Positions 2,217-45,508 of a stretch of 64,000 nt of DNA are shown piece by piece. Positions within the stretch are counted from its first letter, which is position 1, and each line of letters starts with the position of its first letter. Both the position numbers and the translations under genes were made by a program. The notes under the pieces were generated by a model. It ran no database searches, was not told the origin of the DNA, and saw nothing but the letters and a program-made list of their open reading frames with translations. Source of the DNA: an uncultured Caldilineales bacterium (GTDB taxonomy: Bacteria > Chloroflexota > Anaerolineae > J102); assembly GCA_964535455.1 (NCBI GenBank), contig CAZHTZ010000001.1:5015-69014 (forward strand). Reading direction: 5' to 3'.

Positions 2217-5200
2217 TCATCCCCCCACAAAACGCCCGTCCGGCAGTGCCGTGGCCTGGCCGAGCAGGGCGAGGGTTTCCAGAAGCTCGGCGACGCGGGC
2301 CACGGGCGCGGCCTGAAAGGCGGCGGCCACCTGGTGGGGCATGGCGGGTACAGCCAGCGCCGCCAGGGCCGCGCGCACGGCCTGGGCTTGTGCGGCCATG
2401 CGGTCGGGCCAGGGTAGGACCGCCCGTGTCGCCAACGATGGCCCTTCTTCCTCCGCCGCAGCGGTCTCGACCAACAGAACGGCCTGTGTGGGTTGCGCCG
2501 CGGCCGGCGCCTGGTAGTCGGGGCGCAGCCAGCGCACGAGGCCCTGCGCCTCCTCGGCGGCGCGCTCAGCGTTGAGGGCCACCAGCCGCTCCAGGATGGC
2601 CTCATCGTCCAGGTCGGGCGGCCAGCCGTAGACGTCGAACACGGCCAGGTCGAGGTCGTCGTGGAGCTGTTTGAGGATGCTGACCAGCCCCTGTTCGTGG
2701 ATGAGGCGCTCGCGCGGGGTCAAGGCGGGTGAGGGTGAGGGCGCCTGTTCGGCGGCAGCCAGCTTCTCCAACACGTTGTACATGCCGGTCAGGGTTAGCT
2801 TGGGGTGCAGGGCCTGCTGGCGCTTGCGGTGGGCGTCCAGCTCTTCGGCCAGGGCGCGGATTCGGGCCTCTTGCTCGTCTGTAGGATCGGGGAAAGGGAA
2901 CTTGTTGAAGCATTCGGAGTGGTTGTAGTTGGAGTCGTTGCCCACACCAAGCCATGCGCCCGTTCGCATCGCCCAGACAACATGGATGTGAGATGAAACC
3001 ACACCCAGAAAGTAGGCGTCTTCCAACGCAATCGCGACAACCTTTGCGTCCGGCACCGTTTCCGATTCGAGGAATACAAAAATCCGATGTTTGGCGGTTC
3101 TGCTTGTGGCAACATACCGCTCTGTCGAAGAAAGTGCGGGCCGAAAGTTCGCTCTTGGCTCTGCAAACAACCACCAACGTTCTCTGTATGAAGAACGATT
3201 GTTTTGGTCTCGTTCGGGCTTAACCCGATCATGAACCCATTGATACACCGCTGGAAACCGTTGCCGAACATCGCCGATGTCGAGCCCAAACAAATCGATC
3301 ACCATTACGTCGCGCGGAATGCCCGTAATGTCCTTGCCGTTTCGATATGGTCGGATGAACTGCTTCAGGTCTGGGGTCGTTGATCTTCCCAACGATTCAG
3401 CTTCACTGGGGGAAAGAACAAAACCCATACCACTCAACTGCACCCCATTGCAGCACAACAACTCGTTGGAGCTCAGTGGAACTGCACTTACCGAGTCAGC
3501 ACCAATTGTCAGGTCGGCATTTACCCGGCCAGCGGACCTTGTCAAATAGACCCTCTTGTCGACGTCGTCTGTTCCTTCCTCCGCAACTACAGTGGCAAGT
3601 ACTCCATCATGTTTGTCGGCAACACCTACCGTCATGGCGATACGAACCGCCGCACCATCAGCACTGTCCACCCAAGGATGATCTGGGATGGCGAAGATGA
3701 GTGACAAACATGGGTCAGCTGATAGATGGTCCTCTACTATCCGTCTGTTAAATCGTTGAGAAAGACTGTTTGTTGTGATGAGTCCAAAACGGTGTGTAGA
3801 TTCCAGGCGCACCAGATTGGCCGCATGATTCCACCAATACATCACGTAGTCAAAGCTGCTGGGCAGACTACGATAGGCCGTTCGTAAAGCATCAACGTAC
3901 CCGTCTCCAAGTACATCTCGCATTCGCTTGTCGCCGATAAACGGCGGATTGCCGACGACGAAATCGGCCTCCGGCCAAGCGGCGGGGCGGGGGTTGAGGT
4001 AGCGCCAGGCGGGGACGCGGGCGCTTTCGTCTGGCACCGGCTCGCCGGTCACGGGGTGGGGCTTGAACGTGCGCCCGTCCCAACGGGTCACGGGCCGGCC
4101 CTCGGCGTCCAGCAGCGGCTCCACCGCGTCCCAGACCAGCACGGCGTCGCGGCACTCGATGTTGTGCAGGTTGCGCAGAATCGGCTCGGGCAGGCCGGCG
4201 GCGTCGCCGCGGGTGCGCAGGTGCCACTGCAGGTAGCCGATCCACAGCACCAACTCGGCGATGGCGGCGGCGCGGGGGTTGACCTCGATGCCGTAGAACT
4301 GCTCCGGCCGCACGATCTCGCCCTCCAGCTCCAGCGACTCCTGTTCCTGCCCCAGCTTGCGCAGCACCTCCAGCACCTCGCCTTCCAGCCGCTTCAGGTG
4401 CTCCAGGGTGACATAAAGAAAATTGGCGGTGCCGCAGGCGGGGTCGAGGATGCGGATGCTGGCCAGCCGCCGCCGGAAGGCCCTGACCTCGGCCAGCGCC
4501 TCCGCCCGCTTGCCCTGCTCGGCCAGCAGCAGCGCCGCCGTCTGCACCGACTCCCACTCCGCCCGCAGCGGCTCGATGATGGTGGGCAGCACCAGGCGCT
4601 CGACATAGGCCCGCGGCGTGAAGTGCGCGCCCAGCTTGTGGCGCTCGGCCGGGTCCAGCGCCCGCACCAGCAGCGCCCCGAAGATGGCAGGCTCCACGTC
4701 GCGCCAATCGGCGCCGGCGGCCTCGATCAGCAGTTGGATCTGGTCGACGGTCAGGGGCAGGGCCGTGGTCTCTTCGAACAGGCCGCCGTCGAAGTGCGGC
4801 ACGGGCGCCCGCAGGGCCACGGAAAAGCCGCCGTGGGCCATGGTCCGCCACAGCTCTGCGGTCAAGGGTGGAAAGCTGGCGTGATTGAGTTTCGCATCGG
4901 CCAGAAGCTGCGTGAAGCCGCGGTTGGGCAGCAGGCCCACGTCCTCGGCGAACATGGTGAACAAGCAGCGCATCAGGAAATGGGCCACGTCTTCCGGCGA
5001 ATGCGCCTGCTCCAGCGAGCAGGCCAGCCGCGCCAGCCGCTCGGCGATCTCGCGCGTGACGCGGGCGCTGCGCCGGGCCGGGTCCAAGCTCATGGGTTCG
5101 AGCCAGACCTGGCGCAGCAGCGCCCTCGTCGTGTCATCCTGCAGGTCAGCCAGGTCGAGCCGGTAATGGGCCGGGTCAGGGAAGGGGATGTAGTTGCCGC

Positions 5201-5702
5201 CCGTGCGGCTGAACTCCGCGTATAGAGCGATGGACCGGCCCACGTCCACCACGATCAGGAAGGGCGTCCGGCCGCCTTCGATCTCGCCCGGCGGCAGATT
5301 GCGGGCATAGGACTGCGCCTGCTGTCTGGCCCGCTCCATGGCCGTATCCCAACCCGCGGTCCCGCGCACCGCCGTGCCCCGCCTGCGGCCCTTGATTTGG
5401 CGTTCTCCCTCCTGCGACAGCGCCTCATCTGTCGCGCGGTCGCTCCCCTGTTTGGCCTCCAGCACAAAACAGCCGCGTTTATAAAGGTCGATGCGGCCGG
5501 TCGCGCCGTGGGGCAGCGGCGCCGATTTCTCGAAGACGTAGGCGTTCTGGGCCTCGTCCGGCGTCGACGGGTGCGGCTGCTCCACGTCCAGCACGTGGCA
5601 CAGCTCGGTCAGAAAGAGCTGGTAATTGGCGCGTTCGGCGGCGCCGGAGGCCTGCCAGCGCTCGATAAAGGCCTGGATGTCCTGTGGAGAAGCGTCAGGC
5701 AT
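2217..5702 (-). CDS. Type IIG/IIL restriction-modification enzyme of the MmeI family: N-terminal PD-ExK nuclease, gamma-class N6-adenine methyltransferase, C-terminal TRD. A PglX-like relationship is possible.
   Basis: The N-terminus [38 protein letters not shown] matches the MmeI/PglX family. D-x-EAK is present ([17 protein letters not shown]). Motif I is [28 protein letters not shown] and motif IV is [12 protein letters not shown]. The C-terminal half is low-GC (2930-3960). Confidence 0.8.
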
Positions 5703-5834
5703 GGACGTATTTCCGACCAGCACGGCGAAGGGTCTATGGACGCCCAGTATACCGCAGAAGCCCACCCAGCCCGATTCATCGGGCGCTGTTTCTTAGCCGG
5801 GGGACTTCATCCTCCGGCGGCCTGCCCACCACAC

Positions 5835-5885
5835 TTTCGTATCCTTGCGAGTGACCGATGCCGCGCGGCATGGACAACTCGCAAG
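5835..5885. promoter_or_regulatory. Stem-loop between the cNMP-binding gene 3' end and the RM gene start.
   Basis: ccttgcgagt...gccgcgcggc...actcgcaagg inverted repeat. No U-tract follows, so its role (attenuator or terminator) is uncertain. Confidence 0.3.
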
Positions 5886-5904
5886 GAAACGGGACGATAA
5901 GTCC

Positions 5905-6402
5905 CTAAAGCTTCATCGCAAGCGACTCGACGCGCAGGTCCTGCAAGCGGGCGCGCGTCACCTGCACGACCTTCTGCAGCATCAGGTAGCCGAACCGGCA
6001 ATCGGAATCGAAGGCCCGCTGCAGCGCCGGGCAGTCGAAAGCAACTACCCGGCAGGGCGCCGTCGCCCTGGCCCCTGAGGTGGCGGCATGGGGCGGCACC
6101 AGGCCCGACCAGCCGAAAATGTCTCCTGGCACAACGTTGGACACCACCACGTCCTGCGTGGCGAGCTGCCCAGTCATTTGCCCGGACACGGGATGGGCCA
6201 CGTTCTGCTCCGGCAGCTGCATGACGATGCTCACGGCGCCGTCGATCAGAAAGAAGAACCGGTCCAGCTCAACGCCTTCGTGGAAGAAGTAGCGTCCGGC
6301 ATCGACCTGCATCTCCCTACCGGCGCCGGCCAACTTCATAAGATTGTCGGGCGTGAAGTCGCTGAAGAAAGGATAGCGGCGGAGAAGTTCGGGTGAAATC
6401 AT
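5905..6402 (-). CDS. Single-domain cyclic-nucleotide-binding protein (165 aa).
   Basis: Start MISPELLRRYPFFSDF. The cNMP-binding beta-roll features include FFHEGVELDRFFFLIDGAVSIV and GDIFGWSGLV. The longer upstream ORF extension runs through the tandem repeat and was rejected. Confidence 0.75.
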   Translation of the reverse strand: MISPELLRRYPFFSDFTPDNLMKLAGAGREMQVDAGRYFFHEGVELDRFFFLIDGAVSIVMQLPEQNVAHPVSGQMTGQLATQDVVVSNVVPGDIFGWSGLVPPHAATSGARATAPCRVVAFDCPALQRAFDSDCRFGYLMLQKVVQVTRARLQDLRVESLAMKL

Positions 6403-6424
6403 GGGGCGCCTCGGAAGAGGGAGG

Positions 6425-6462
6425 GTGAATTGCGAATTGGGAATTGCGAATTGGGAATTGCG
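6425..6462. repeat. Tandem 7-mer array (gaattgc/gaattgg, about 5 copies).
   Basis: tgaattgcgaattgggaattgcgaattgggaattgcgg. Confidence 0.55.
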
Positions 6463-6488
6463 GACGGCGAGGCGTAGGGGGCGGGGTA

Positions 6489-6537
6489 GGGGCGAGGCTT
6501 CGCCCTGAGGCCTCAGCCCGAAGGGTCGCCTCGCCCC
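6489..6537. repeat. Repeat family C palindrome.
   Basis: ggggcgaggcttcgccctgaggcctcagcccgaagggtcgcctcgcccc. Its core is shared with 14743-14781. Confidence 0.5.
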
Positions 6538-6550
6538 GATGGCGGGGGGG

Positions 6551-7024
6551 TCAGGCGGCGAGGTCGCTGAGGACAGCGGCGACAACAGAAGGGATGACGG
6601 CGGCGACGGCGGGGGTGGGCTGGCTGCTGAAATCGGCGACGTTGGCGACGCGGATGGCGTAGATGACGATGTCGGTGGGCAGGGGCAGACCCATGCGGCG
6701 GCCCGTGTCCAGGGCGGTGATCAGGCTGGCGTCATGGGCCGAGGCGCTGTGCTGCGTGGCGCTGACCGCTTCCAGGTCGGCCAGGGTCAGGCGATGGCTG
6801 GCGCCGGGCGGCTCGTGGCCGGCCGTGTAGGCATCGATGAGAAAAGCGCGGTCGTAGCCCATCATCATCTCCATCAGCCGCAGACCGCCCACGCTGGCTT
6901 CGGTGATGGTCACGCCTTCCTTGCCGTGTGGTCCCAATGCTGCTGCGACGGCCTGCGCCACCAGCACGCCGACGCCGTCGTCGCTGAGGATGGGGTTGCC
7001 AAGCCCGATGACGATGGTGTTCAT
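6551..7024 (-). CDS. Hydrogenase maturation protease (HycI/HyaD/FrhD family).
   Basis: MNTIVIGLGNPILSDDGVGV...FLIDA. It sits directly downstream of the [NiFe] large subunit. Confidence 0.85.
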   Translation of the reverse strand: MNTIVIGLGNPILSDDGVGVLVAQAVAAALGPHGKEGVTITEASVGGLRLMEMMMGYDRAFLIDAYTAGHEPPGASHRLTLADLEAVSATQHSASAHDASLITALDTGRRMGLPLPTDIVIYAIRVANVADFSSQPTPAVAAVIPSVVAAVLSDLAA

Positions 7025-7076
7025 GAGCTGTGCAGCAAGGTGCGACGCACTTTGAAAGTGCGTCGCACCTTGCCGC

Positions 7077-8558
7077 CTATCTTTGCAGCCGCACGACCTC
7101 ATCGCCCTTTACATCCCACACCACCACCTCCAGCGGCATCTGGCCGGGCAGCGAATGGGTGGCGCAGGACATGCAGGGGTCGTAGTTGCGGAAGGCCATC
7201 TCGATGCGGTTGAGCAGTCCATCCGTGATCACGGCGTCCCGGGTGATCAGCGACTGGGCAGCCTTTTTCACCGACATGGCGATGGGGGCGTAGTTGTTGG
7301 TGGTGCCGACGATGAGGTTGACCCCGGTCAGGATGCCGTTTTCGTCGGTGCGGTAGTGATGGGTCAGGGTGCCGCGCGGGGCCTCCACGGAACCCACGCC
7401 CTCGTCAGGTGTTGTCGTGATGATGGGGCGCACGTTGGGGTCGGTGATCTCCGGGTCCTGGACCAGCTCCAGCATGCGCTCGGCAGCGTAGAGCATCTCG
7501 ACCAGCCTAGCCCAATGCGTCGCCAGGCGCAGATGCACGGGCTCGTAATGGCCGTTCGTCTTGTTGCTGCCCAGGGTCTCGTAGAAGCGCTCGTAGGCTG
7601 CCTGGGCCCGCGGGGTGGCCATGCCGTCAGCCGCGTTCAGCCGCGACAGAGGCGTAGCGCAGTAAACGCCGCTGTCCTTGCCGTCGACAAAGCCTTTCCA
7701 GCCGACTTTCTTCAGGTAAGGGAACTTGAGATAGGTCCACGGCTCCACGCGCTCGGCGATGTGCTGCGCGTAGTCGCGGCAAGGGTACTTGACGAACTCT
7801 TTGCCGTCAGGGTCCACCACCCGGATCATGCCGTCGTAGAAGTTGACCCGGTTTTGGGCGTCGACCGTGCCCATGTAGTAGGTGCGATGGCTGTAGGTGT
7901 CGGAGAGGATGAGGTCGACATAGGCCGGGTTCGCCAGCACGATGTCGTCGAAGACCTGCAGCGAGAACTGGGCAAAGTCCACGTTCTGGCGGGCGATGCC
8001 CTCGATCTCCTCACGCTCGGCCGGCGCAACCGCCCGGCTCCAGCCGCCCGGCAGCCCTGCCACCGGGTGTACCCCGCGACCTCCCAGCATCTTGATCACG
8101 TGATGGTTGCGCATGCGGCAGTCGATGACCTTCCTGCCGGTTTCCACGCCCACCTTGTGGATGACGCCCAGGATGTTGCGCTCCGCCGCCGGCGCGTCGG
8201 GGCCGACCACGAAGTCAGGGCCGCCCAGCGCATAGAAATGCGTGGTGTGGTCGGTGACGTAGAAGGCCATGTAGAACATCTCGCGCAGCTTTTTCACCGC
8301 GGACGATGGCTCGACGTGGTAGAGTGCATCGAGCGCCTTGGTGGCGGCCATGTGGTGCGCCTCCGGGCAGACGCCGCAGATGCGGTTGGTGATGCGGGGC
8401 ATTTCCTCGGCGGGCCGACCCACGCAGAAGGCCTCGAAGCCGCGCAGCTCGGGAATCTGGAAGTAGGCGTTGGCGACGTCGCCCTCCTCATTGAGGAAAA
8501 TCTCGATCTTGCCGTGCCCTTCCAGGCGAGTGATGGGATCAATGCTGATGCGTTTCAT
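7077..8558 (-). CDS. mvhA: [NiFe] hydrogenase large subunit, MvhA-like (group 3).
   Basis: MKRISIDPITRLEGHGK, N-terminal RICGVCPEAH, C-terminal DPCMSCATH followed by a 25-aa extension that the maturation protease would cleave. Confidence 0.9.
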   Translation of the reverse strand: MKRISIDPITRLEGHGKIEIFLNEEGDVANAYFQIPELRGFEAFCVGRPAEEMPRITNRICGVCPEAHHMAATKALDALYHVEPSSAVKKLREMFYMAFYVTDHTTHFYALGGPDFVVGPDAPAAERNILGVIHKVGVETGRKVIDCRMRNHHVIKMLGGRGVHPVAGLPGGWSRAVAPAEREEIEGIARQNVDFAQFSLQVFDDIVLANPAYVDLILSDTYSHRTYYMGTVDAQNRVNFYDGMIRVVDPDGKEFVKYPCRDYAQHIAERVEPWTYLKFPYLKKVGWKGFVDGKDSGVYCATPLSRLNAADGMATPRAQAAYERFYETLGSNKTNGHYEPVHLRLATHWARLVEMLYAAERMLELVQDPEITDPNVRPIITTTPDEGVGSVEAPRGTLTHHYRTDENGILTGVNLIVGTTNNYAPIAMSVKKAAQSLITRDAVITDGLLNRIEMAFRNYDPCMSCATHSLPGQMPLEVVVWDVKGDEVVRLQR

Positions 8559-8568
8559 AGCGCCTCTC

Positions 8569-9615
8569 CTAAGACCTTGCCGGTTGCGGGACGGCTGCCT
8601 CGACGCCATCCGTTCGGGTCCGCCGCAGCAGCGAGTGCGCCATGCTGAAGCGGTAGAACGTCCCGGCCGGATCGACGATGGTGTCCACTGCGGCCTCGAC
8701 CTTGCGTTCCAACTCGAGCTCATTGTCGCCCGGCCTGCCGCTCACATCCAAAATCGAGGCGATGGCCGTCAGCATGCGCATGCCCTGATCCTCGACGCCG
8801 GGCAGCGGACCATAACAGCCGCGGCAGCCCATGCCCACCTGCGGACAAAGGGCGCCGCAGCCGCTGAGCGTGGCCGGGCCCATGCACACCAGGCCCTGCT
8901 CCAGCAGGCACAGCCCCGGTTGGGGCTGGATTTCGTAGGGGCGATAGAAGCGGGCAACGGTTTTCTCGTTCTTGGCCAAAGGGCACTCCTCGCAGACGGC
9001 GACGGTGCCGGCGCCCAAAAGGGAACCCTTGGGTGGGAGAGGCGCGCCCTGGGTCAGCGCCGCCACCACCACCTGCAGCACGGCCCAGATCTGATGGGGC
9101 TCGGGCGGGCAGCCGGGGATGGTGTAGTCCACGTCCACAACCTGGTCGAGCGACTTGACCGTATGGTAGAAGACGGGAATCTCCAGATCGCCTTCGGGGA
9201 CAGACGTGTGCGGTTGGGGCAAAATGCCGGCAGGGTTGTCAATGGATGGGTTGTCGAGAAAGACTGCCCGCAGGGTGGCTTCACGCGTCGTCAGGTTCGA
9301 GAGGGCGGGGATGCAGCCCTCATAGGCGCAGGAACCAAAGGCCACCAACAGCTTCGACTTCCGCCGCAGCAGGTGCGCCATCTCCTCGTTTTCCGAATTG
9401 CGGATGGCGCCGTTGAACAGGCAGAGGTCGATGGTGCCGTCGGGGTAACCCATCACATCCTTGACCTTGAAGTCGGCGATGCAGGGGAAGAAAGCCAGGT
9501 CGAAGACCGCATCCACCGTCAAGATGTGCTCGCCGATGTTCAAGGTGCTGATCTCACAGCCGCCGCAAGCGGAGGCCCAATACATGGCTAGCTTGGGTTT
9601 GCCGTTGGCGCTCAT
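8569..9615 (-). CDS. mvhG: [NiFe] hydrogenase small subunit, MvhG-like.
   Basis: MSANGKPKLAMYWASACGGCEISTLN and multiple Cys clusters for FeS centres. Confidence 0.85.
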   Translation of the reverse strand: MSANGKPKLAMYWASACGGCEISTLNIGEHILTVDAVFDLAFFPCIADFKVKDVMGYPDGTIDLCLFNGAIRNSENEEMAHLLRRKSKLLVAFGSCAYEGCIPALSNLTTREATLRAVFLDNPSIDNPAGILPQPHTSVPEGDLEIPVFYHTVKSLDQVVDVDYTIPGCPPEPHQIWAVLQVVVAALTQGAPLPPKGSLLGAGTVAVCEECPLAKNEKTVARFYRPYEIQPQPGLCLLEQGLVCMGPATLSGCGALCPQVGMGCRGCYGPLPGVEDQGMRMLTAIASILDVSGRPGDNELELERKVEAAVDTIVDPAGTFYRFSMAHSLLRRTRTDGVEAAVPQPARS

Positions 9616-10100
9616 GCCGTCACCACCTGGACAATTTCTGATTGCGGATGGTGGATGGCGAATGGCGAATCGCCGTCGTCGGCAATGACGCCCTGCCAGT
9701 TCAGCGGTCCCAGCGCCCGCACCTCTTCGACCATATGAGTGATCTCGGCAGCCAACCGGGCGCCCTCGGCGGCGCTGGCCCACACCAGCCTCACCCGTTC
9801 CGGCTCGATGCCGAACTGGGCCAATGTGCGCCTGAGCAGGGTGAAACGGCGCAAGGTTTTATAGTTCTGGTCCAGGTAGTGGCACTCGCCGGGATGGCAG
9901 CCGGTGATCAGTACGCCGTCGGCTCCGCCCGCCAGTGCCTTGAGCACGAAGGTTGGGTCCAGGCGACCGGAGCACATCAGGCGGATAAGACGAACGTTGG
10001 GTGGATATTTCATCCGCGACGTTCCGGCCAGGTCGGCGGCCCGGTAGCTGCACCAGTTGCAGGTGAAGCCGATGATGACGGGTTCAAAGGGCTCGGACAT
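9612..10100 (-). CDS. mvhD: Methyl-viologen-reducing hydrogenase delta subunit, MvhD-like.
   Basis: MSEPFEPVIIGFTCNWCSYRAADLAG and GCHPGECHY. Confidence 0.85.
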   Translation of the reverse strand: MSEPFEPVIIGFTCNWCSYRAADLAGTSRMKYPPNVRLIRLMCSGRLDPTFVLKALAGGADGVLITGCHPGECHYLDQNYKTLRRFTLLRRTLAQFGIEPERVRLVWASAAEGARLAAEITHMVEEVRALGPLNWQGVIADDGDSPFAIHHPQSEIVQVVTA

Positions 10101-10135
10101 AACAGTTACCTCCCACTCCGGGTATCAGGGCTGCT

Positions 10136-12172
10136 TTACGCAGGCACGAGCGCCGGCTCCAATTGCCGCGCCGAACCTTCGCTCAGGTTCAACAGCAGCA
10201 GGCCATACAACTGCGCCAGCACCTGTTCGTTGCTGAACTGCGTGCCGGTGATGGCGCCCGATGGACAGGCCGCCACGCAGGTGCCGCAGCCCTGGCACAG
10301 CGCCGGGTTGATCTCGGTGACCTTGGCGGCCGTGTCGTACGAGATGGCATTGTAGGGACAGAGGTTGTTGCAGATGCGGCAGCCGGAGCAGAGTTCGGCA
10401 ATGATGCTGGCCCGCACCGGCTCCAGCGCCAGCACCTTCTGGTGGATGCGTCCCATCACCCGCGCCGCGGCGGCGGCGCCCTGGGCCACACTGGCCGGGA
10501 TGTCCTTGGGTCCCTGGCAGACGCCGGCGATGAAGATGCCTTCCGTCATCGTCGCCACGGGGTCCAGCTTGGGATGCCTCTCGATGAACCAGCCATTGGC
10601 GCTGCAAGCGATGCCAAATGTGTGGGCCACAGCCGTCGAGTCCTGCCGGGGCTGCAATGCCGCAGACAGCACCACCATATCGACAGGAATGCGGCGCTGC
10701 TTGCCCAGCAAAGTGTCTTCGACCTGGATGATGAGCTTGCCCTCTTCGCCGCTCATGCGGGCGGCGTCGGTCACTTCCGCCACGCGTCCCCGCACAAAGT
10801 GGACCCCCTCCTCCAGCACTCGCTGGTAGAACTCGTCGTAGTCCTTGAAGGCGGTGCGTATGTCGATATAGAAGTTGAAAACCTCGGCGCCGGTGCGCTC
10901 CTTCACCAGGTGGGCGAATTTCAGGCTCTGCATGCAGCAGATGCTGGAGCAATAGGGATTGTAGTTGTGGTCGCGGCTGCCCACACAGTGGATGATGCCC
11001 ACCGTCGCCGGCTCCGTCACCCCATCTCGCAGCACGATCTTTCCACCTGTGGGGCCGGCGGCGTTGCAGAGCCGTTCGAATTCCAGGCTGGTGAACACGT
11101 TTGCCAGCCGGGCGTAGCCGTATTGGGGAATGCGTCGACGATCGAACAAATCGAAGCCGGTGGCCAGGATGATGTTGCCTACCTGGAACTGGAGAATTTC
11201 ATCCTTTTGCTCGAAGTCAATCGACTTGGGCTGGGTGGGGCAGAAGAGCTGGCAGGCTTTGCACTTTCCGCGCTGGAAGTACGTGCAGTTCTCGCGGTCG
11301 ATGACCGGGTATTTGGGCACCGCCTGGGCAAAGGGCCGGTAGACCGCCTTGCGATAGCCCAACCCCGCCTCGTAGGTATTGTCCAGCACCCGCACAGGGC
11401 ACTTCTCGATGCAGATGCCGCAGCCTGTGCAGACACTCTCATTCACGTAGCGCGCCTTCTTGCGCACGGTGACGGTAAAGTTGCCCACGTAGCCATCCAC
11501 ACGCTCCACCTCGCTCCAGGTGAGCAGGGTCACGTTCGGATGCCCGCCCACATCCACCATCTTGGGCGTCAGGATGCAGGCCGAGCAGTCGAGCGTGGGG
11601 AAGGTCTTGTCGAACTGGGCCATATGCCCGCCGATGGACGGCTCTCTTTCCACCAGGTAGACCGGGTAGCCACTGTCGGCGATCTCAAGCGCCGCCTGGA
11701 TACCGGCGATGCCGCCGCCGACGATGAGGGTGGCCGGATGGATGGGTACTTGCAGGGGTTCCAGAGGCTGGTGCAGGATCACCCGCTCCACGCCGCCCGA
11801 AACCACCGCCTTCGACTTCTCGGTGGCCGCCCTGCGATCGGTGTGCACCCACGACACCTGTTCGCGGATCGACACCAGCTCACACAGAAAAGGGTTCAAC
11901 CCCGCCCGCTTGCAGGCCGTGCGGAAGGTGCGCTCGTGCAGATGGGGCGAGCACGCTGCTACGACGACCCTGGTCAGGCCCTGTTCCTTGATGTCGGCCT
12001 CGATCAGCTCTTGGCCCAGGCTGGAGCACATAAATTGATAGTCGCGGGCGACCACGACGCCCCGATCCTTGAGCTCATCGCCGGCCCACAGCGCCACCTC
12101 CTCCACGTCCACGGTGGCGGCAATATTGGTGCCGCAATGGCAGACGTATACGCCGATACGTTCACGACTCAT
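10136..12172 (-). CDS. hdrA: Heterodisulfide reductase subunit A-like FAD/FeS flavoprotein.
   Basis: VYVCHCGTNIA, FAD-binding LIVGGGIAGIQAAL, several CxxCxxCxxxCP ferredoxin motifs. Length is 678 aa. Confidence 0.9.
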   Translation of the reverse strand: MSRERIGVYVCHCGTNIAATVDVEEVALWAGDELKDRGVVVARDYQFMCSSLGQELIEADIKEQGLTRVVVAACSPHLHERTFRTACKRAGLNPFLCELVSIREQVSWVHTDRRAATEKSKAVVSGGVERVILHQPLEPLQVPIHPATLIVGGGIAGIQAALEIADSGYPVYLVEREPSIGGHMAQFDKTFPTLDCSACILTPKMVDVGGHPNVTLLTWSEVERVDGYVGNFTVTVRKKARYVNESVCTGCGICIEKCPVRVLDNTYEAGLGYRKAVYRPFAQAVPKYPVIDRENCTYFQRGKCKACQLFCPTQPKSIDFEQKDEILQFQVGNIILATGFDLFDRRRIPQYGYARLANVFTSLEFERLCNAAGPTGGKIVLRDGVTEPATVGIIHCVGSRDHNYNPYCSSICCMQSLKFAHLVKERTGAEVFNFYIDIRTAFKDYDEFYQRVLEEGVHFVRGRVAEVTDAARMSGEEGKLIIQVEDTLLGKQRRIPVDMVVLSAALQPRQDSTAVAHTFGIACSANGWFIERHPKLDPVATMTEGIFIAGVCQGPKDIPASVAQGAAAAARVMGRIHQKVLALEPVRASIIAELCSGCRICNNLCPYNAISYDTAAKVTEINPALCQGCGTCVAACPSGAITGTQFSNEQVLAQLYGLLLLNLSEGSARQLEPALVPA

Positions 12173-13154
12173 GGCTCAACCCTCCATCGGCCATCGCCGG
12201 CGTCGGAAGCGCCTCTTTGCCGGCCCGCTCCTTTTTCGGCTTGGGCGGCGGCTCGACCCCGATCTTGTTCAGGGCCGCAGTGGCGTCTATGAACTCCTTG
12301 CCGAATCCCAGGGTCGCCGCCGGCAGCCCAAACGCCAGCCCCATCAACTGCGTGAAGTAAAGAATAGGAAGGTGGTACTTGGTGCCGAAGTGGCGGTTTA
12401 CAGCCTCCTGGTAGGCATCCAGGTTGAGCTGGCACATGGGGCAGAGGGTGACGATGGCGTCAGCCTCGTACTCGGCAGCATTTTGCAGCAGCTGCCGGAT
12501 CATCTCCAGCGCCACCTGCTCGCTGATCTGCGTCATGTGCCCGCCGCAGCAGTGCGTCTTGACCGGGAAGTCCACGACGGTCGTTCCCAGCGTCCGCATG
12601 AGCTTGTCCAGGGACATGGGGTATTCGGGGTCGTCGAACGCCCCCTGGAAGCCGGGACGGACGATCAGGCAGCCATAGTACGGTGCGATTCGCAGTCCAT
12701 ACAGCGGCTTCTGCACCCTGGCGGCGATGGCATCGTAGCCCACGTCGTTGACGACAATGTCCAACAAGTGGCGGACGCGGACGCTGCCCGGCCGGTAGCT
12801 CAATCCCCCGGCCGCCAGCGCCGTGTTGATGTTGGCAGCCAACCGGGGAGCGTCGCCCATGTACCTGTCAACCTTGCTCAGGTTGAGGAAGCAGGCGCTG
12901 CATGGGGCGACGACCTGATTCTTGCTGCCGCCATTGAGTTTCTGTCGGGAAGCGATGGCCAGATTCCTCGCCACCAGTGCATACGCCGGCAGCATTTCGA
13001 TGGCAATGTACTCCGTGGCCCCACAGCAGTTCCAGTCTTCGAGCTGCACGAACTCGATATCCAAAAGAGGCGCCACTGCCATAGCCGATTGATGGTAGGC
13101 AATGGCGTTGCGCTCCAAGGAACAGCCTGGGTAATAGCCGTACTTTGCACTCAT
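12162..13154 (-). CDS. hdrB: Heterodisulfide reductase subunit B-like protein (CCG domains).
   Basis: MSAKYGYYPGCSLE and two CCG-type Cys-rich motifs. Confidence 0.85.
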   Translation of the reverse strand: MSAKYGYYPGCSLERNAIAYHQSAMAVAPLLDIEFVQLEDWNCCGATEYIAIEMLPAYALVARNLAIASRQKLNGGSKNQVVAPCSACFLNLSKVDRYMGDAPRLAANINTALAAGGLSYRPGSVRVRHLLDIVVNDVGYDAIAARVQKPLYGLRIAPYYGCLIVRPGFQGAFDDPEYPMSLDKLMRTLGTTVVDFPVKTHCCGGHMTQISEQVALEMIRQLLQNAAEYEADAIVTLCPMCQLNLDAYQEAVNRHFGTKYHLPILYFTQLMGLAFGLPAATLGFGKEFIDATAALNKIGVEPPPKPKKERAGKEALPTPAMADGGLSHES

Positions 13155-13789
13155 TGCCTGCCTCCTAATAAGGTGGCGCCGCCTCCTGATAAGGTGGCGC
13201 CTCCTCCTTCATCCAGTTCCCTTGCCTTGGCCAGGATCGCCTGCAGCTGCTTGATGCCGTCGATCCGTTTTGGCGTCAGGTCCATGCGGCCCTTGCGAAG
13301 CATGCCCAACCCCAACCCTAACTTCTTGACGGCGGTCAGGGGGTGATGGCGGAGATGGTAGCGAGTCGCCAACCCAAGCTCGAAGCTGCGCCCGTAGTTG
13401 TTCACGAAGTCGATAAACGTCTCCGAGAAACCGGGAGCGTCGGCGGCGCTTGACTCGCGATAGAGTCCCTCCTTGATGGCCATGCGCTTCAGCGTGTACA
13501 TGATGTCGGTGATGTGGATTTCCTGCGGACACCGCACCGTGCAGTAGTAGCAGGAAACGCAATACCAGGGGGTATTGCTGCGCAACACATCCTCCTTCAT
13601 GCCCGCCCGAATCATGGCGAACAGATGCCGCGGTGTGTGTTCCATGTCGGGGCCCGAGGGACACGAACCCCCACAAGTGCCACACTGTATACAAAGTTCC
13701 AGATGGGAGGCGCCGCCGGGTGTCGCCGCAATGACCTCGTCCATGAACGCGCCGGGCGACGGCCCCGCCGTACTTCGCTGTGCGACCAT
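13151..13789 (-). CDS. hdrC: Heterodisulfide reductase subunit C-like protein (2x[4Fe-4S]).
   Basis: CIQCGTCGGSCP and CVSCYYCTVRCP. Confidence 0.85.
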   Translation of the reverse strand: MVAQRSTAGPSPGAFMDEVIAATPGGASHLELCIQCGTCGGSCPSGPDMEHTPRHLFAMIRAGMKEDVLRSNTPWYCVSCYYCTVRCPQEIHITDIMYTLKRMAIKEGLYRESSAADAPGFSETFIDFVNNYGRSFELGLATRYHLRHHPLTAVKKLGLGLGMLRKGRMDLTPKRIDGIKQLQAILAKARELDEGGGATLSGGGATLLGGRQ

Positions 13790-14057
13790 ATGATCTTAGC
13801 TCCTTGGCGTTTGCGCGGCAGCGGAAAGACCGATAACAGCGGAACCAGTATAACCTATTCCATGGCGCCAGAATATGATCTGGATCATGTTACGTGAAAT
13901 AATTCACGAAATGCACTTCGCTTTTGCGGTGAGGCCAGCACCTGGGCGATGGACGCGTACGCCCGTCCTGGCAATGCCCTTGCAGGTTGTTGCCGGTGGT
14001 ATCGTTGCCGTTTATGATCCCTGTGCGTATTCCCACGCTCGCCTAAGACCAGCACCC

Positions 14058-42175: not shown

Positions 42176-42979
42176 TCAACACAGGAGTTGAAGCAGGTGG
42201 TCCCGAGAGAGAAGGTCCAAACGTTCCTCGGCTTCCAGAAAAGGCTGGACGTCAGTCATAACCCGATCCCAGGTCGCATCCTGCAATCGGGCTCGCACAA
42301 GAGCACGCCAGGAAGTCGGGATAAGGGTTTCGCCTTGCCAGCCGGTTTGTTGTAGAGCGTTGTTCAAAAGCGCCAGGTTGGGTTCGGGCCAGTCTGGATC
42401 GCCGAGATACCAGAGAAGGTCGTAAACATCGCGACCCTTGAGGAAAGAGCGCGACAGTACAGCATGAAGCTTCCCAGCGAAGAGCGACGTCTTGTCATGA
42501 TGTTGCAGATGAAGAGTGACATGACGCCGAATGAGAGTCGTTGCCAGTATCGCACCTGCCGGTGGATTGGTGTCGACCTCGATCTTGACCGATAGGACTT
42601 CGGCGCGCTGCGGTGAAAGACCTAGCTCATAGAGCAGTCCCGGAAACCGCACGAAAGCGCTATGGACGACCTTGCGATCGCTGACTGAAATAGCGACATC
42701 ATAGCCTTCGGCGGTGAAATTGCTGTGAATGGTGCGAAGATAACGGTGGAAATCGTAGCTATCACGAGCCTGCTCAAGCGTGAAGTCAAGGTCTTCCGAA
42801 TAGCGCGGGAGGTGGTACAGAAAGCGTAGTGCTGTCCCCCCCTGAAATGCCAACGGGATCATGGCGCCAGCATGCTGCAGTGATGCCAGGATGCGTGCCT
42901 GCAGGTACTCACGTGTGAGATTGCGGCCGGCCAAGGGAGTGGTGCTGCCTGCAACAATTGCGGCCAGATATTCCTTCAC
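42176..42979 (-). CDS. AbiEii/AbiGii-family nucleotidyltransferase toxin (type IV TA).
   Basis: AFQGGTALRFLYHLPRYSEDLDF matches the DUF1814/AbiEii signature. GC is lower than in flanking genes. Confidence 0.8.
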   Translation of the reverse strand: MKEYLAAIVAGSTTPLAGRNLTREYLQARILASLQHAGAMIPLAFQGGTALRFLYHLPRYSEDLDFTLEQARDSYDFHRYLRTIHSNFTAEGYDVAISVSDRKVVHSAFVRFPGLLYELGLSPQRAEVLSVKIEVDTNPPAGAILATTLIRRHVTLHLQHHDKTSLFAGKLHAVLSRSFLKGRDVYDLLWYLGDPDWPEPNLALLNNALQQTGWQGETLIPTSWRALVRARLQDATWDRVMTDVQPFLEAEERLDLLSRDHLLQLLC

Positions 42980-43617
42980 AGCGGCAAGTAGGCCTCAGCT
43001 TCGGCGGCAGCGAGGTTGATCACGATGGACGTAGCCTTCTGGAGTCTAGCGACACCGCTGCGTTCGGCCATCCAATGGAGCCGCTCGCAGTCCAGACGTT
43101 CGAGGTTCTGCAGGCGCAACTCGTTGAGATAAGCAGCGCTACCGCCATCGGGTTGGAGATAGACGAGATCGAGCAGTGATTTTTCTGGCGTGGCGAGGAA
43201 GGCATGTTGTCTGGGAGCAACCTCGCTCCACTCATAACCCCAGAACAAAGACGACTTGAGGTGTCGAAAGAGGAAATCACCTAATGGGGTACGATGCAAC
43301 GCTGGACGCACATTGCCCACACTGGTGACCACGGGAACGTACTCAGGAATCAGCCCATAGTATGCCAGCGCTGCCTGCAAGCTCACATAGGAACCAGGCT
43401 CCAAGAGGTTAGCAACGAGGAAAGGATGCGGCTCGACCTTGCGGTATGGTGGCGCTAGAGCATACAGTCCTCTGCGCAGTTGTTGAATGCGACCGGCGGT
43501 CGTCCAACGTGAGAGTTGGCGCCGGACGTCAGCCGGATTGACGCCGCCCACCAGGAGCAAACCGGTCTCAAAGAGTGGTTCGTCGCCGACAAGATCGACA
43601 AGGTCCCTGAATCTCAT
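42976..43617 (-). CDS. AbiEi-family antitoxin/transcriptional regulator.
   Basis: It lies immediately upstream of AbiEii with a 4-nt overlap. The N-terminal wHTH-like region is MRFRDLVDLVGDEPLFETGLLLVGG. Confidence 0.75.
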   Translation of the reverse strand: MRFRDLVDLVGDEPLFETGLLLVGGVNPADVRRQLSRWTTAGRIQQLRRGLYALAPPYRKVEPHPFLVANLLEPGSYVSLQAALAYYGLIPEYVPVVTSVGNVRPALHRTPLGDFLFRHLKSSLFWGYEWSEVAPRQHAFLATPEKSLLDLVYLQPDGGSAAYLNELRLQNLERLDCERLHWMAERSGVARLQKATSIVINLAAAEAEAYLPL

Positions 43618-43704
43618 TGCAACAATATGCCATAGTTGGCAAGTTACTGCAATAGCCAAGTGCGTGATCAAGTGCGACGCACCTTGAAGGTGCGTCGCAC
43701 TTGA

Positions 43705-45076: not shown

Positions 45077-45508
45077 TCAACCCGCGAGCAGCAATCGCAA
45101 CAGCAGGAGGAAGTCGCCGGGCTTCGTAATCCGAATACCCTGGTAATCACCCAACTTGAGCAAGTGGGCGTCACCTGTCACTATCAGGTCGGCGCCCGCA
45201 GCGACAGCGCACTCCACATACCGGTCATCGTCTGGATCATCGGCCATAACCTGAACACGCAAAGTAGGCTCGATCAGGGTTGCTTCCTCGCTTAACAGAT
45301 GGACGAATTCCTCGATCTGGGCGTCGTCCAGACGGTATCGTTCTTGAATCCTGGGATAGTGTGCAACCCGAGCGATTTCATCCAGGACCGCAGGCGACAG
45401 CACCAGCTCGTAGACACCTTGCTTCCAGAAATCCAACACCTGAGCCATCGCCCCTTGGGGTGTAATCAAGGCGCTGATGACCACATTGGCATCCAGCACC
45501 ACCCGCAT
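45077..45508 (-). CDS. PIN-domain toxin (VapC-like).
   Basis: MRVVLDANVVISALI...IVTGDAHLL has the conserved PIN acidic residues. Confidence 0.8.
   Translation of the reverse strand: MRVVLDANVVISALITPQGAMAQVLDFWKQGVYELVLSPAVLDEIARVAHYPRIQERYRLDDAQIEEFVHLLSEEATLIEPTLRVQVMADDPDDDRYVECAVAAGADLIVTGDAHLLKLGDYQGIRITKPGDFLLLLRLLLAG

Follow-up and report, generated by a model that had tools for sequence, protein, structure and literature searches.

A single gene in the 64,000-nucleotide stretch of contig CAZHTZ010000001.1 analyzed here (hereafter the window), which comes from an uncultured Caldilineales bacterium, encodes an intact, solitary restriction-modification (RM) enzyme of the MmeI type (type IIL/IIG), in which a nuclease, a helical spacer, a gamma-class N6-adenine methyltransferase, a target recognition domain (TRD), and C-terminal helices are joined in one chain of 1,161 amino acids (aa). 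Comparison with a close ortholog shows that aa 591–924 of this protein, a block of low guanine-plus-cytosine (GC) content that takes in the end of the methyltransferase domain and most of the TRD, have been replaced, and that the scaffold around them (aa 1–590 and 925–1161) is resident at the locus and has been inherited together with the neighboring genes. The best explanation as a whole, to which we assign a probability of roughly 85%, is thus an intact MmeI-type enzyme on a resident scaffold whose central block was replaced by a divergent allele.

In mechanistic terms, aa 591–924 would have been swapped when the gene recombined homologously with a divergent allele from its own subfamily of approximately 1,150-aa enzymes; judging from the positions of the breakpoints, the crossovers probably lay in the closest conserved stretches of nucleotide sequence on either side, namely the DNA for NPPFIG and the DNA for NYxHSE..FPFP. 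The event would then be one instance of a trend seen across the subfamily, whose recognition modules are replaced much faster than their scaffolds and resemble mobile DNA in composition. An earlier note on this DNA had proposed a recent horizontal replacement of the TRD in a resident scaffold; the replacement and the resident scaffold are borne out by the comparison described below, but neither the word "recent" nor which lineage changed is established.

The ortholog was found among the 120 best full-length homologs of the protein (at most 70% identity overall), of which one, P0008, is singled out by an N-terminal part that is 96% identical, a C-terminal part that is 82% identical, and a middle that is 58% identical. 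The contig carrying it, from an ENA metagenome assembly (hereafter L001), shows conserved synteny with the window to the left and right of the gene, with 84–95% nucleotide identity. Comparing the window and L001 codon by codon, we obtained for each region the amino-acid identity and the frequency of mismatches at four-fold degenerate sites:

Scaffold, aa 1–190: amino-acid identity 0.92, four-fold mismatch 0.18
Scaffold, aa 215–589: amino-acid identity 0.96, four-fold mismatch 0.13
Block, aa 590–700: amino-acid identity 0.67, four-fold mismatch 0.78
Block, aa 701–924: amino-acid identity 0.53, four-fold mismatch 0.71
Scaffold, aa 925–1161: amino-acid identity 0.85, four-fold mismatch 0.20
Flanking membrane-protein gene: amino-acid identity 0.84, four-fold mismatch 0.19
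Flanking serine dehydratase genes (alpha, beta): amino-acid identity 0.97 and 0.95, four-fold mismatch 0.18 and 0.14

Because the mismatch of the scaffold is like that of the flanking genes, the scaffold is resident, inherited along with its neighbors. The block in the window and the block in L001 are unrelated by recent descent, and at least one replacement has taken place since the two lineages split. The comparison places the breakpoints at 2931 and 3932 (aa 591–924). At the left breakpoint, nucleotide identity between the window and L001 is near-perfect through GTCGTCGGCAATCCGCCGTTTATCGGC (encoding VVGNPPFIG) and is lost at the next codon; at the right breakpoint, identity with L001 is back exactly at AACTACAACCACTCCGAATGCTTCAA (encoding NYNHSECFN).

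Two further features of this alignment deserve mention. A second, short divergent patch between the window and L001 lies outside the low-GC block, at 2700–2790 (aa ~967–1000), where the alignment has 21 gap columns and L001 has the lower GC (0.57–0.58 vs 0.68). The L001 gene also appears divided into a 214-aa and a 948-aa gene, but we rejected a true split, as the poly-G and subsequent run of N at L001 6286–6417 represent an assembly gap.

To map the block onto protein domains, we combined a HMMER alignment to MmeI (5HR4) with the published domain borders of that enzyme (nuclease 1–155, spacer 156–300, methyltransferase 301–620, TRD 621–825, and C-terminal bundle 826–919; PMC4833311). The border between methyltransferase and TRD falls at aa 732/733 of the window protein, and the TRD extends to aa 940; the last 142 methyltransferase residues and 192 of the 208 TRD residues make up the block, approximately 40% of which is not TRD. 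The earlier note had equated the low-GC segment with the TRD, which holds for aa 733–924, whereas aa 591–732 are the conserved C-terminal part of the methyltransferase, in part the kind of alignment that the note itself had named as speaking against its reading. The corresponding features of the gene are as follows:

2217–5702, minus strand: complete gene of an MmeI-family type IIL/IIG RM enzyme (single open reading frame, PADLOC, Pfam, AlphaFold/PDB)
5007–5678, minus strand: N-terminal PD-(D/E)XK nuclease domain, aa 9–232 (PF20464; D72-X9-E82-A-K84 at 5451–5489)
4776–4994, minus strand: helical spacer, aa 237–309 (PF20465)
3933–4496, minus strand: resident part of the gamma-class N6-adenine methyltransferase domain, with motif I DPACG (4431–4445) through motif IV NPPFIG (3933–3950), the latter being the putative left crossover anchor (PF20473)
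2931–3932, minus strand: foreign recognition module, aa 591–924 (composition and comparison with L001)
3507–3932, minus strand: methyltransferase C-terminal part inside the replaced module, aa 591–732, equivalent to MmeI 487–620 (HMMER against 5HR4, borders from PMC4833311)
2883–3506, minus strand: TRD, aa 733–940, equivalent to MmeI 621–825 (PF20466, MmeI alignment), of which aa 733–924 lie within the replaced module
2889–2930, minus strand: putative right crossover anchor, the conserved motif at aa 925–938 at the end of the TRD, where identity with L001 resumes
2220–2882, minus strand: resident C-terminal region, aa 941–1161 (PADLOC PDLC03627 positions 910–1134; GC content at third codon positions [GC3] 0.84, Karlin B 0.26)

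The limits of the block acquire a functional meaning when set against the DNA contacts of MmeI, in which K487, S488, and K489 (in the methyltransferase domain, directly after NPPF) contact base pairs 2 and 4, and the last specificity residues are L805, E806, R808, and R810 (PMC4833311). The block corresponds approximately to MmeI residues 487–809, from the first to nearly the last base-contacting residue: It starts at D591-K592-R593, the equivalents of K487/S488/K489, and ends at S924, the equivalent of Y809, while N925, which corresponds to R810, falls immediately beyond the block and is common to the window and L001. Since its start coincides with the first base-contacting residues and its end with the counterpart of the MmeI loop 805–809, the block is, on the basis of this alignment, predicted to be one complete DNA-reading module that spans essentially every base-contacting position. 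Restriction and modification use the same module, so the specificity of both would change together. We infer a change in specificity relative to the ortholog; the window enzyme probably recognizes a different sequence than the ortholog in its closest known relative, in which case the two lineages would differ in their methylation marks and in their barriers to incoming DNA. An attempt to derive the recognition sequence itself from the MmeI residue-to-base code was abandoned, because the equivalent positions are nearly invariant in the subfamily; as the equivalents of MmeI S807 and R808 (N922 and D923) illustrate, that code is not simply transferable.

The junctions are of practical interest as well, in that they provide, at base-pair resolution, natural swap points in an MmeI-like scaffold, one immediately following NPPFIG and the other immediately preceding NYxHSE..FPFP. 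For specificity engineering, it is useful that the portable unit can include DNA-touching methyltransferase residues, and not the annotated TRD alone.

Composition of the block and of its subfamily

In 300-nt windows, GC falls from 0.68–0.75 on both sides to 0.50–0.55 between approximately 2850 and 3950, and the bin 3001–4000, with a GC of 0.527, is the lowest of the 64 one-kb bins of the window. A two-breakpoint maximum-likelihood fit on GC3 returned a block at 2946–3926, with a GC3 of 0.50 inside and 0.875 outside; the GC of this fitted block (0.518) corresponds to a z-score of −4.1 against all 981-nt windows of the 64 kb, among which it is the lowest (the next elsewhere being 0.56). For the block as delimited by L001 (2931–3932, aa 591–924), GC and GC3 are both 0.52, compared with approximately 70% GC in the rest of the gene, and the counts of third positions occupied by G or C are 173/335 and 726/826, respectively (Fisher p = 8 × 10−38). 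The earlier note had put the low-GC segment at 2930–3960 (residues 580–925, with approximately 50% vs 68% GC), which agrees with our values within approximately 30 nt and a few percent.

Codon usage gives the same picture. As a host reference we used nine neighboring genes, of which eight have reading frames backed by Pfam matches; GC3 in the nine ranges from 0.75 to 0.88, and the two parts of the scaffold have GC3 values of 0.89 and 0.84. In Karlin codon-bias distance, the block lies 0.66 and each of the two scaffold parts 0.26 from these nine genes, with the host genes lying 0.21–0.34 from one another. At four-fold sites, GC3 is 0.92 in the scaffold vs 0.52 in the TRD part of the block (aa 701–924), and GC3 as such is 0.54 for aa 701–924 and 0.46 for aa 590–700. 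The AT-rich codon usage of the block marks it as imported, and the description of the segment as compositionally foreign thus withstands both the GC check and the codon-usage check. Promoter-like matches inside the AT-richer block were put down to its composition.

L001 also has a low-GC stretch, which is shorter and of different sequence (L001 7880–8575, corresponding to window 3625–2930; GC3 0.57), while the C-terminal part of its methyltransferase is host-like, with a GC3 of 0.85. The C-terminal part of the methyltransferase in the window looks like the derived state.

These values need to be read against those of the ~1,150-aa subfamily, which we sampled at 80 loci (L002–L081) in species-representative genomes from many phyla, at 48–64% identity; the closest of these homologs (64%) occur in metagenome-assembled genomes (MAGs) of Anaerolineales. 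Averaged over the family, GC3 is flat over the scaffold at approximately 0.76, lower by 0.06 to 0.13 at aa 581–700 and by 0.16 to 0.24 at aa 701–920, and recovered by aa 940. The TRD has a lower GC3 than the scaffold in 74 of 76 genes, the average difference being 0.20 (Wilcoxon p = 5 × 10−14), and the corresponding gap at four-fold sites is 0.25 (seen in 78 of 81 genes). TRD GC3 follows flanking GC with a slope of 1.39, the same as that of scaffold GC3, at an offset of −0.20. Plasmids and phages show the same kind of constant negative GC offset relative to their hosts. We rejected low amino-acid conservation as the source of the dip, as poorly conserved scaffold regions keep the GC3 of the scaffold, and likewise amino-acid composition, as the dip is still present at four-fold sites. 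In a limited literature search, we found no description of such a subfamily-wide constant AT offset of the recognition module.

Because a low-GC TRD is the rule in this subfamily, low GC alone cannot date a transfer, and more generally a GC dip inside an RM gene is to be expected and should be interpreted with corresponding care. Within the same family distribution, it is the C-terminal part of the window's methyltransferase (aa 590–700, GC3 0.46) that is unusual (z = −2.4, rank 2 of 81).

A separate compositional pattern is apparent in three Pontibacter loci (L018, L024, and L032) and one Phaeodactylibacter locus (L005), where scaffold GC3 is 0.64–0.85, well above the flanking GC of 0.43–0.56, and the GC3 of the middle segment (aa 593–919) is 0.26–0.31. 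In those genomes, scaffold and TRD seem to come from opposite compositional pools.

Mosaic structure of the subfamily

For a wider view of how modules and scaffolds are combined, we compared two sets pairwise, the set of genome loci and a set of metagenome proteins (P0001–P0120). The identity of the scaffold and that of the TRD are uncoupled (Spearman correlation 0.10 for the genome loci and −0.13 for the metagenome proteins), whereas the identities of the N- and C-terminal scaffold parts correlate at 0.53 and 0.40, and those of the methyltransferase C-terminal part and the TRD at 0.66. Fifty-two metagenome pairs have scaffolds at least 90% identical; TRD identity is below 60% in 29 of them and at least 90% in only 3, and the median of 0.54 equals the background. 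The genome set behaves similarly, with TRD identity below 60% in 9 of the 12 pairs whose scaffolds are at least 90% identical. Four Thioalkalivibrio species, for example, have scaffolds that are 96–98% identical and TRDs that are 39–51% identical, and three Pontibacter species provide a further example.

Breakpoints were fitted for 13 pairs with near-identical scaffolds, 10 of which gave clean fits. In 9 of these 10, divergence stops on the right within aa 912–932; the left ends lie at aa 591, 630, 647, 692–694, 721, or 738. For the window and L001, the fit overran to aa 1002 owing to the second divergent patch, and the nucleotide alignment puts the right breakpoint at aa 924/925. The breakpoints fall on islands of exact matches, 14 nt or longer, between family members, a pattern that homologous recombination would leave if conserved motifs served as its anchors. 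From aa 696 to aa 920, matches of this length occur in fewer than approximately 1% of pairs, except in two small patches where the figure reaches up to 2.6%, and the motif at aa 925–938 is the first nucleotide-identity island, across the family, after this TRD "desert."

The block of the window is about equally distant from all 80 genome loci, its TRD part being 41–57% identical to theirs. Scanned alone against PADLOC, it scores 438 bits with PDLC03627, 152 bits with DrmMI, and 114 bits with PDLC03599; because it fits PDLC03627 far better than the other models, the donor would be another allele of the same ~1,150-aa subfamily, and we rejected cross-family shuffling from DrmMI or another IIG family on the strength of these scores. 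A plasmid search with the block gave three weak partial matches, in the form of short patches with 73–77% identity that cover no more than 23% of the block, and a phage search gave no match.

A broader proposal, which we put forward tentatively and consider somewhat less probable than an even bet, is that the unit of exchange throughout the ~1,150-aa subfamily may be a "recognition cassette" made up of the methyltransferase C-terminal subdomain (to a variable extent) and the TRD, circulating as a pool apart from the scaffolds, with a fixed right junction at NYxHSE..FPFP and a few left junctions in conserved motifs after NPPF. What suggests such a pool is that cassette and scaffold identities are uncorrelated, that turnover is faster than 10% scaffold divergence, and that the GC3 deficit of about 0.2 (0.25 at four-fold sites) is constant and tracks host GC as mobile DNA does. 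If this were true, the natural junctions would be ready-made boundaries for engineering specificities by cassette swapping, and the AT offset would be a general marker of within-gene horizontal turnover.

Competing explanations

Several results weigh against the explanation that we favor. The low-GC segment was searched alone, as the earlier note had advised for finding the donor lineage, and the outcome was negative: No donor emerged from 5.8 billion proteins, in which the best match to the block alone has 60% amino-acid identity. The TRD proper of the window is ordinary for the family in its GC3 (z = −0.9, rank 10 of 81). No pair was found with a shared TRD on clearly different scaffolds; the metagenome set contains 0 cases at T−N of at least 0.15, and the genome set just four weak shared-TRD cases, at approximately 0.10. 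Finally, only two orthologs are at hand, the polarity is not settled for the TRD, and L001 too has a low-GC TRD, different from that of the window.

The last point bears directly on the strongest alternative, namely that the replacement is old: The low-GC module would be ancestral, and the L001 lineage would later have replaced its methyltransferase C-terminal part, its TRD, or both. The low-GC stretch in the TRD of L001 (7880–8575, GC3 0.57) agrees with such a history, as does the persistence of low-GC TRDs across the subfamily, given which an AT-rich module need not be young, and two taxa cannot polarize the change. The methyltransferase C-terminal part points the other way, since in the window it has a GC3 of 0.46 in a host of 0.75–0.88 (and ranks second of 81), and the L001 copy is host-like, as expected if it has long been resident. 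We therefore consider an old replacement unlikely, although it deserves to be taken seriously.

Less probable again is the idea that low GC is intrinsic to TRD-coding DNA and carries no signature of transfer, arising for instance through weaker selection or through less GC-biased gene conversion between alleles that are too divergent. The ubiquity of the dip (in 74 of 76 genes, and in 78 of 81 at four-fold sites), its constant offset from host GC at the same slope of 1.39 as the scaffold, and its failure to follow amino-acid conservation are all what this idea would lead one to expect. An equal slope with a constant offset is, however, also expected of DNA drawn from a mobile pool, as in the pattern of plasmids and phages, and an intrinsic bias cannot account for a block with 0.71–0.78 mismatch and 33–47% amino-acid divergence beside a scaffold with 0.13 mismatch and 4% divergence, nor for breakpoints that are sharp within a few codons.

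An artifact of assembly is very improbable. Both junctions do lie at the most conserved motifs of the family, where k-mers would be shared, and an assembler could have crossed there into the homolog of a lower-GC organism and back. Against this, the full-length reading frame is perfectly in frame, the same mosaic is present in the independently assembled L001 and in Thioalkalivibrio and Pontibacter assemblies that are titled with a strain name and not labeled as MAGs, and a 14-nt exact run at these motifs occurs in just 5–10%, approximately, of random family pairs.

Rewriting of the TRD in place, whether by local hypermutation or by programmed diversification (a shufflon with silent cassettes, or a diversity-generating retroelement), can be dismissed for practical purposes: Programmed TRD switching is known for Type I hsdS loci, but tblastn and blastn searches of the 64-kb window revealed neither a further copy of any segment of the gene nor a silent cassette, no inverted or direct repeats bracket the block, no recombinase was seen among the scanned neighboring genes (a reverse transcriptase was not specifically searched for), the differences extend over the full 1 kb of the block and affect conserved methyltransferase residues as well, and accelerated evolution in place cannot give saturated synonymous sites beside a scaffold with 13% mismatch.

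The enzyme, related systems, and genomic neighborhood

The longest open reading frame of the region occupies 2217–5765 on the minus strand without interruption; with the ATG at 5702 as start, which is common to the L001 ortholog, and a stop codon at 2217–2219, it gives the 1,161-aa protein. PADLOC model PDLC03627 (REase_MTase_IIG) matches end to end (1,558 bits, aa 8–1158 on positions 3–1134 of 1,136), and all four MmeI domains of Pfam score above their gathering cut-offs: PF20464 MmeI_N at aa 9–232 (5.5 × 10−26, 92 bits vs a cut-off of 27), PF20465 MmeI_hel at aa 237–309 (1 × 10−14, 55 bits), PF20473 MmeI_Mtase at aa 403–697 (116 bits), and PF20466 MmeI_TRD at aa 758–939 (6.8 × 10−10, 39 bits vs a cut-off of 27). 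The sole sequence match in the PDB is MmeI itself (5HR4; HMMER E = 3 × 10−39, with an alignment that reaches MmeI residue 857). An AlphaFold model of the protein (predicted local distance difference test score [pLDDT] 80) likewise has MmeI as its best fold match (5hr4_J; E = 6 × 10−32, template modeling [TM] score 0.72 normalized to MmeI, 873 aligned columns), with CamA, M.BseCI, DrdV, BpuSI, and PglX as more distant ones. The earlier identification of the product as a single-chain MmeI-family enzyme of 1,161 aa is thereby confirmed at the level of domains, sequence, and fold. The catalytic motifs are intact (D72-X9-E82-A-K84 in the nuclease; DPACG at aa 420, motif I, preceding NPPF at aa 585, motif IV). 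By analogy with MmeI, the enzyme is predicted to recognize an asymmetric site with its TRD, to protect that site by methylating a single adenine, and to cleave the DNA a set distance away; m6A modification of a single strand and cleavage approximately 20/18 nt from the site are characteristic of the family.

The resident C-terminal region (aa 941–1161) consists in the model of a helical bundle (helices at aa 942–1052), a low-confidence linker at aa 1061–1093, and a small terminal domain. Over aa 1061–1161 (2220–2522), the linker, with pLDDT below 50, is followed by a confident domain of helices and short strands at aa ~1094–1161, which has no equivalent in MmeI and is covered by the subfamily model PDLC03627.

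With MmeI (5HR4; Morgan 2008/2009, Callahan 2016), the window protein shares the domain order, the D-X9-E-X-K, DPACG, and NPPF motifs, and the state of a solitary gene; the nuclease motif of MmeI, D70...E80-M-K82 (PMC4833311), has the same spacing. It differs in that identity is approximately 21%, its length is 1,161 aa rather than 919, its C-terminal region is approximately 125 aa longer, and it belongs to a separate ~1,150-aa subfamily.

Replacement of the TRD is an already known way for such enzymes to change their targets, and the present locus is a clean but ordinary example in a less-studied subfamily. One scaffold with many specificities is characteristic of the MmeI family (PMC4833311), the first report that closely related genomes differ in the TRD alleles of their Type IIG genes dates from 2010 (Furuta, Abe & Kobayashi, PMC2853133), and TRD "domain movement" has been described in Helicobacter pylori methyltransferases (PMC3077401, PMC3983042). 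In those cases, as here, a scaffold at a fixed locus has its recognition region replaced between close genomes via flanking conserved sequence. Their TRDs, however (in C. jejuni, S. thermophilus, and H. pylori), are like those of Type I S subunits, whereas that of the window is a single MmeI-type domain, and the unit exchanged in the window also carries the methyltransferase C-terminal subdomain, from directly after motif IV.

Shuffling of Type I hsdS genes is similar to the extent that modular recognition domains are swapped at conserved borders and that modification and restriction change together, but there the S subunit that bears the TRDs is a protein of its own, and inverted cassettes and a recombinase are often found at the locus, whereas the window has neither cassettes nor bracketing repeats. 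BREX PglX and DISARM DrmMI, for their part, have a homologous methyltransferase C-terminal part, TRD, and helical region (DrmMI aligns to aa 580–1031, and PglX structures are among the distant fold matches); unlike them, the window protein has an N-terminal nuclease domain and no partner genes nearby. The NCBIfam models of PglX give it just 17–28 bits, against cut-offs of 400–900, and thus do not support an identity as BREX PglX.

As the earlier note had observed, the gene is solitary and lacks BREX partners: We found no separate cognate methyltransferase gene among its neighbors in the window (where just 2.2 kb are visible 3′ of the gene) or among those of the L001 gene, and no BREX or DISARM partner genes or BREX-type domains among the neighbors of either. 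A solitary gene is the usual state for MmeI-type enzymes (PMC2582602, PMC2731913), so its isolation is unremarkable. The surrounding genes are unrelated to restriction. A convergent gene at 676–2043 encodes an integral-membrane protein, and upstream lie genes for a Crp-like regulator, a NiFe hydrogenase, and HdrABC-like proteins, and then serine dehydratase.

The upstream genes belong largely to an 8.3-kb block (5709–14056) that directly adjoins the RM gene and is missing from the syntenic L001, which has 461 bp in its place; the RM gene therefore stands at the edge of an indel with a hydrogenase cluster of the Mvh/Hdr type. This block contains the Crp-like regulator (5905–6585), the large and small subunits of the NiFe hydrogenase (7077–8723 and 8569–9783), and HdrA-like (10136–12172), HdrB-like CCG-domain (12162–13154), and HdrC-like (13151–13789) genes. 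On the other side, the intergenic region between the convergent membrane-protein gene and the RM gene (2044–2216) contains an 8-nt tandem repeat, CACGTTGG, at 2057–2102, as well as a 27-nt inverted repeat with 93% complementarity (2109–2135 and 2152–2178), which is probably a bidirectional terminator hairpin. Neither rRNA or tRNA genes nor Rfam elements were detected in a scan of the 64 kb. After the low-GC block, the bins with the lowest GC (0.566 and 0.571) likewise carry accessory genes, namely an AbiEii toxin (42176–42979) with an AbiEi-like antitoxin (42976–43671), and a PIN-domain toxin (45077–45508).

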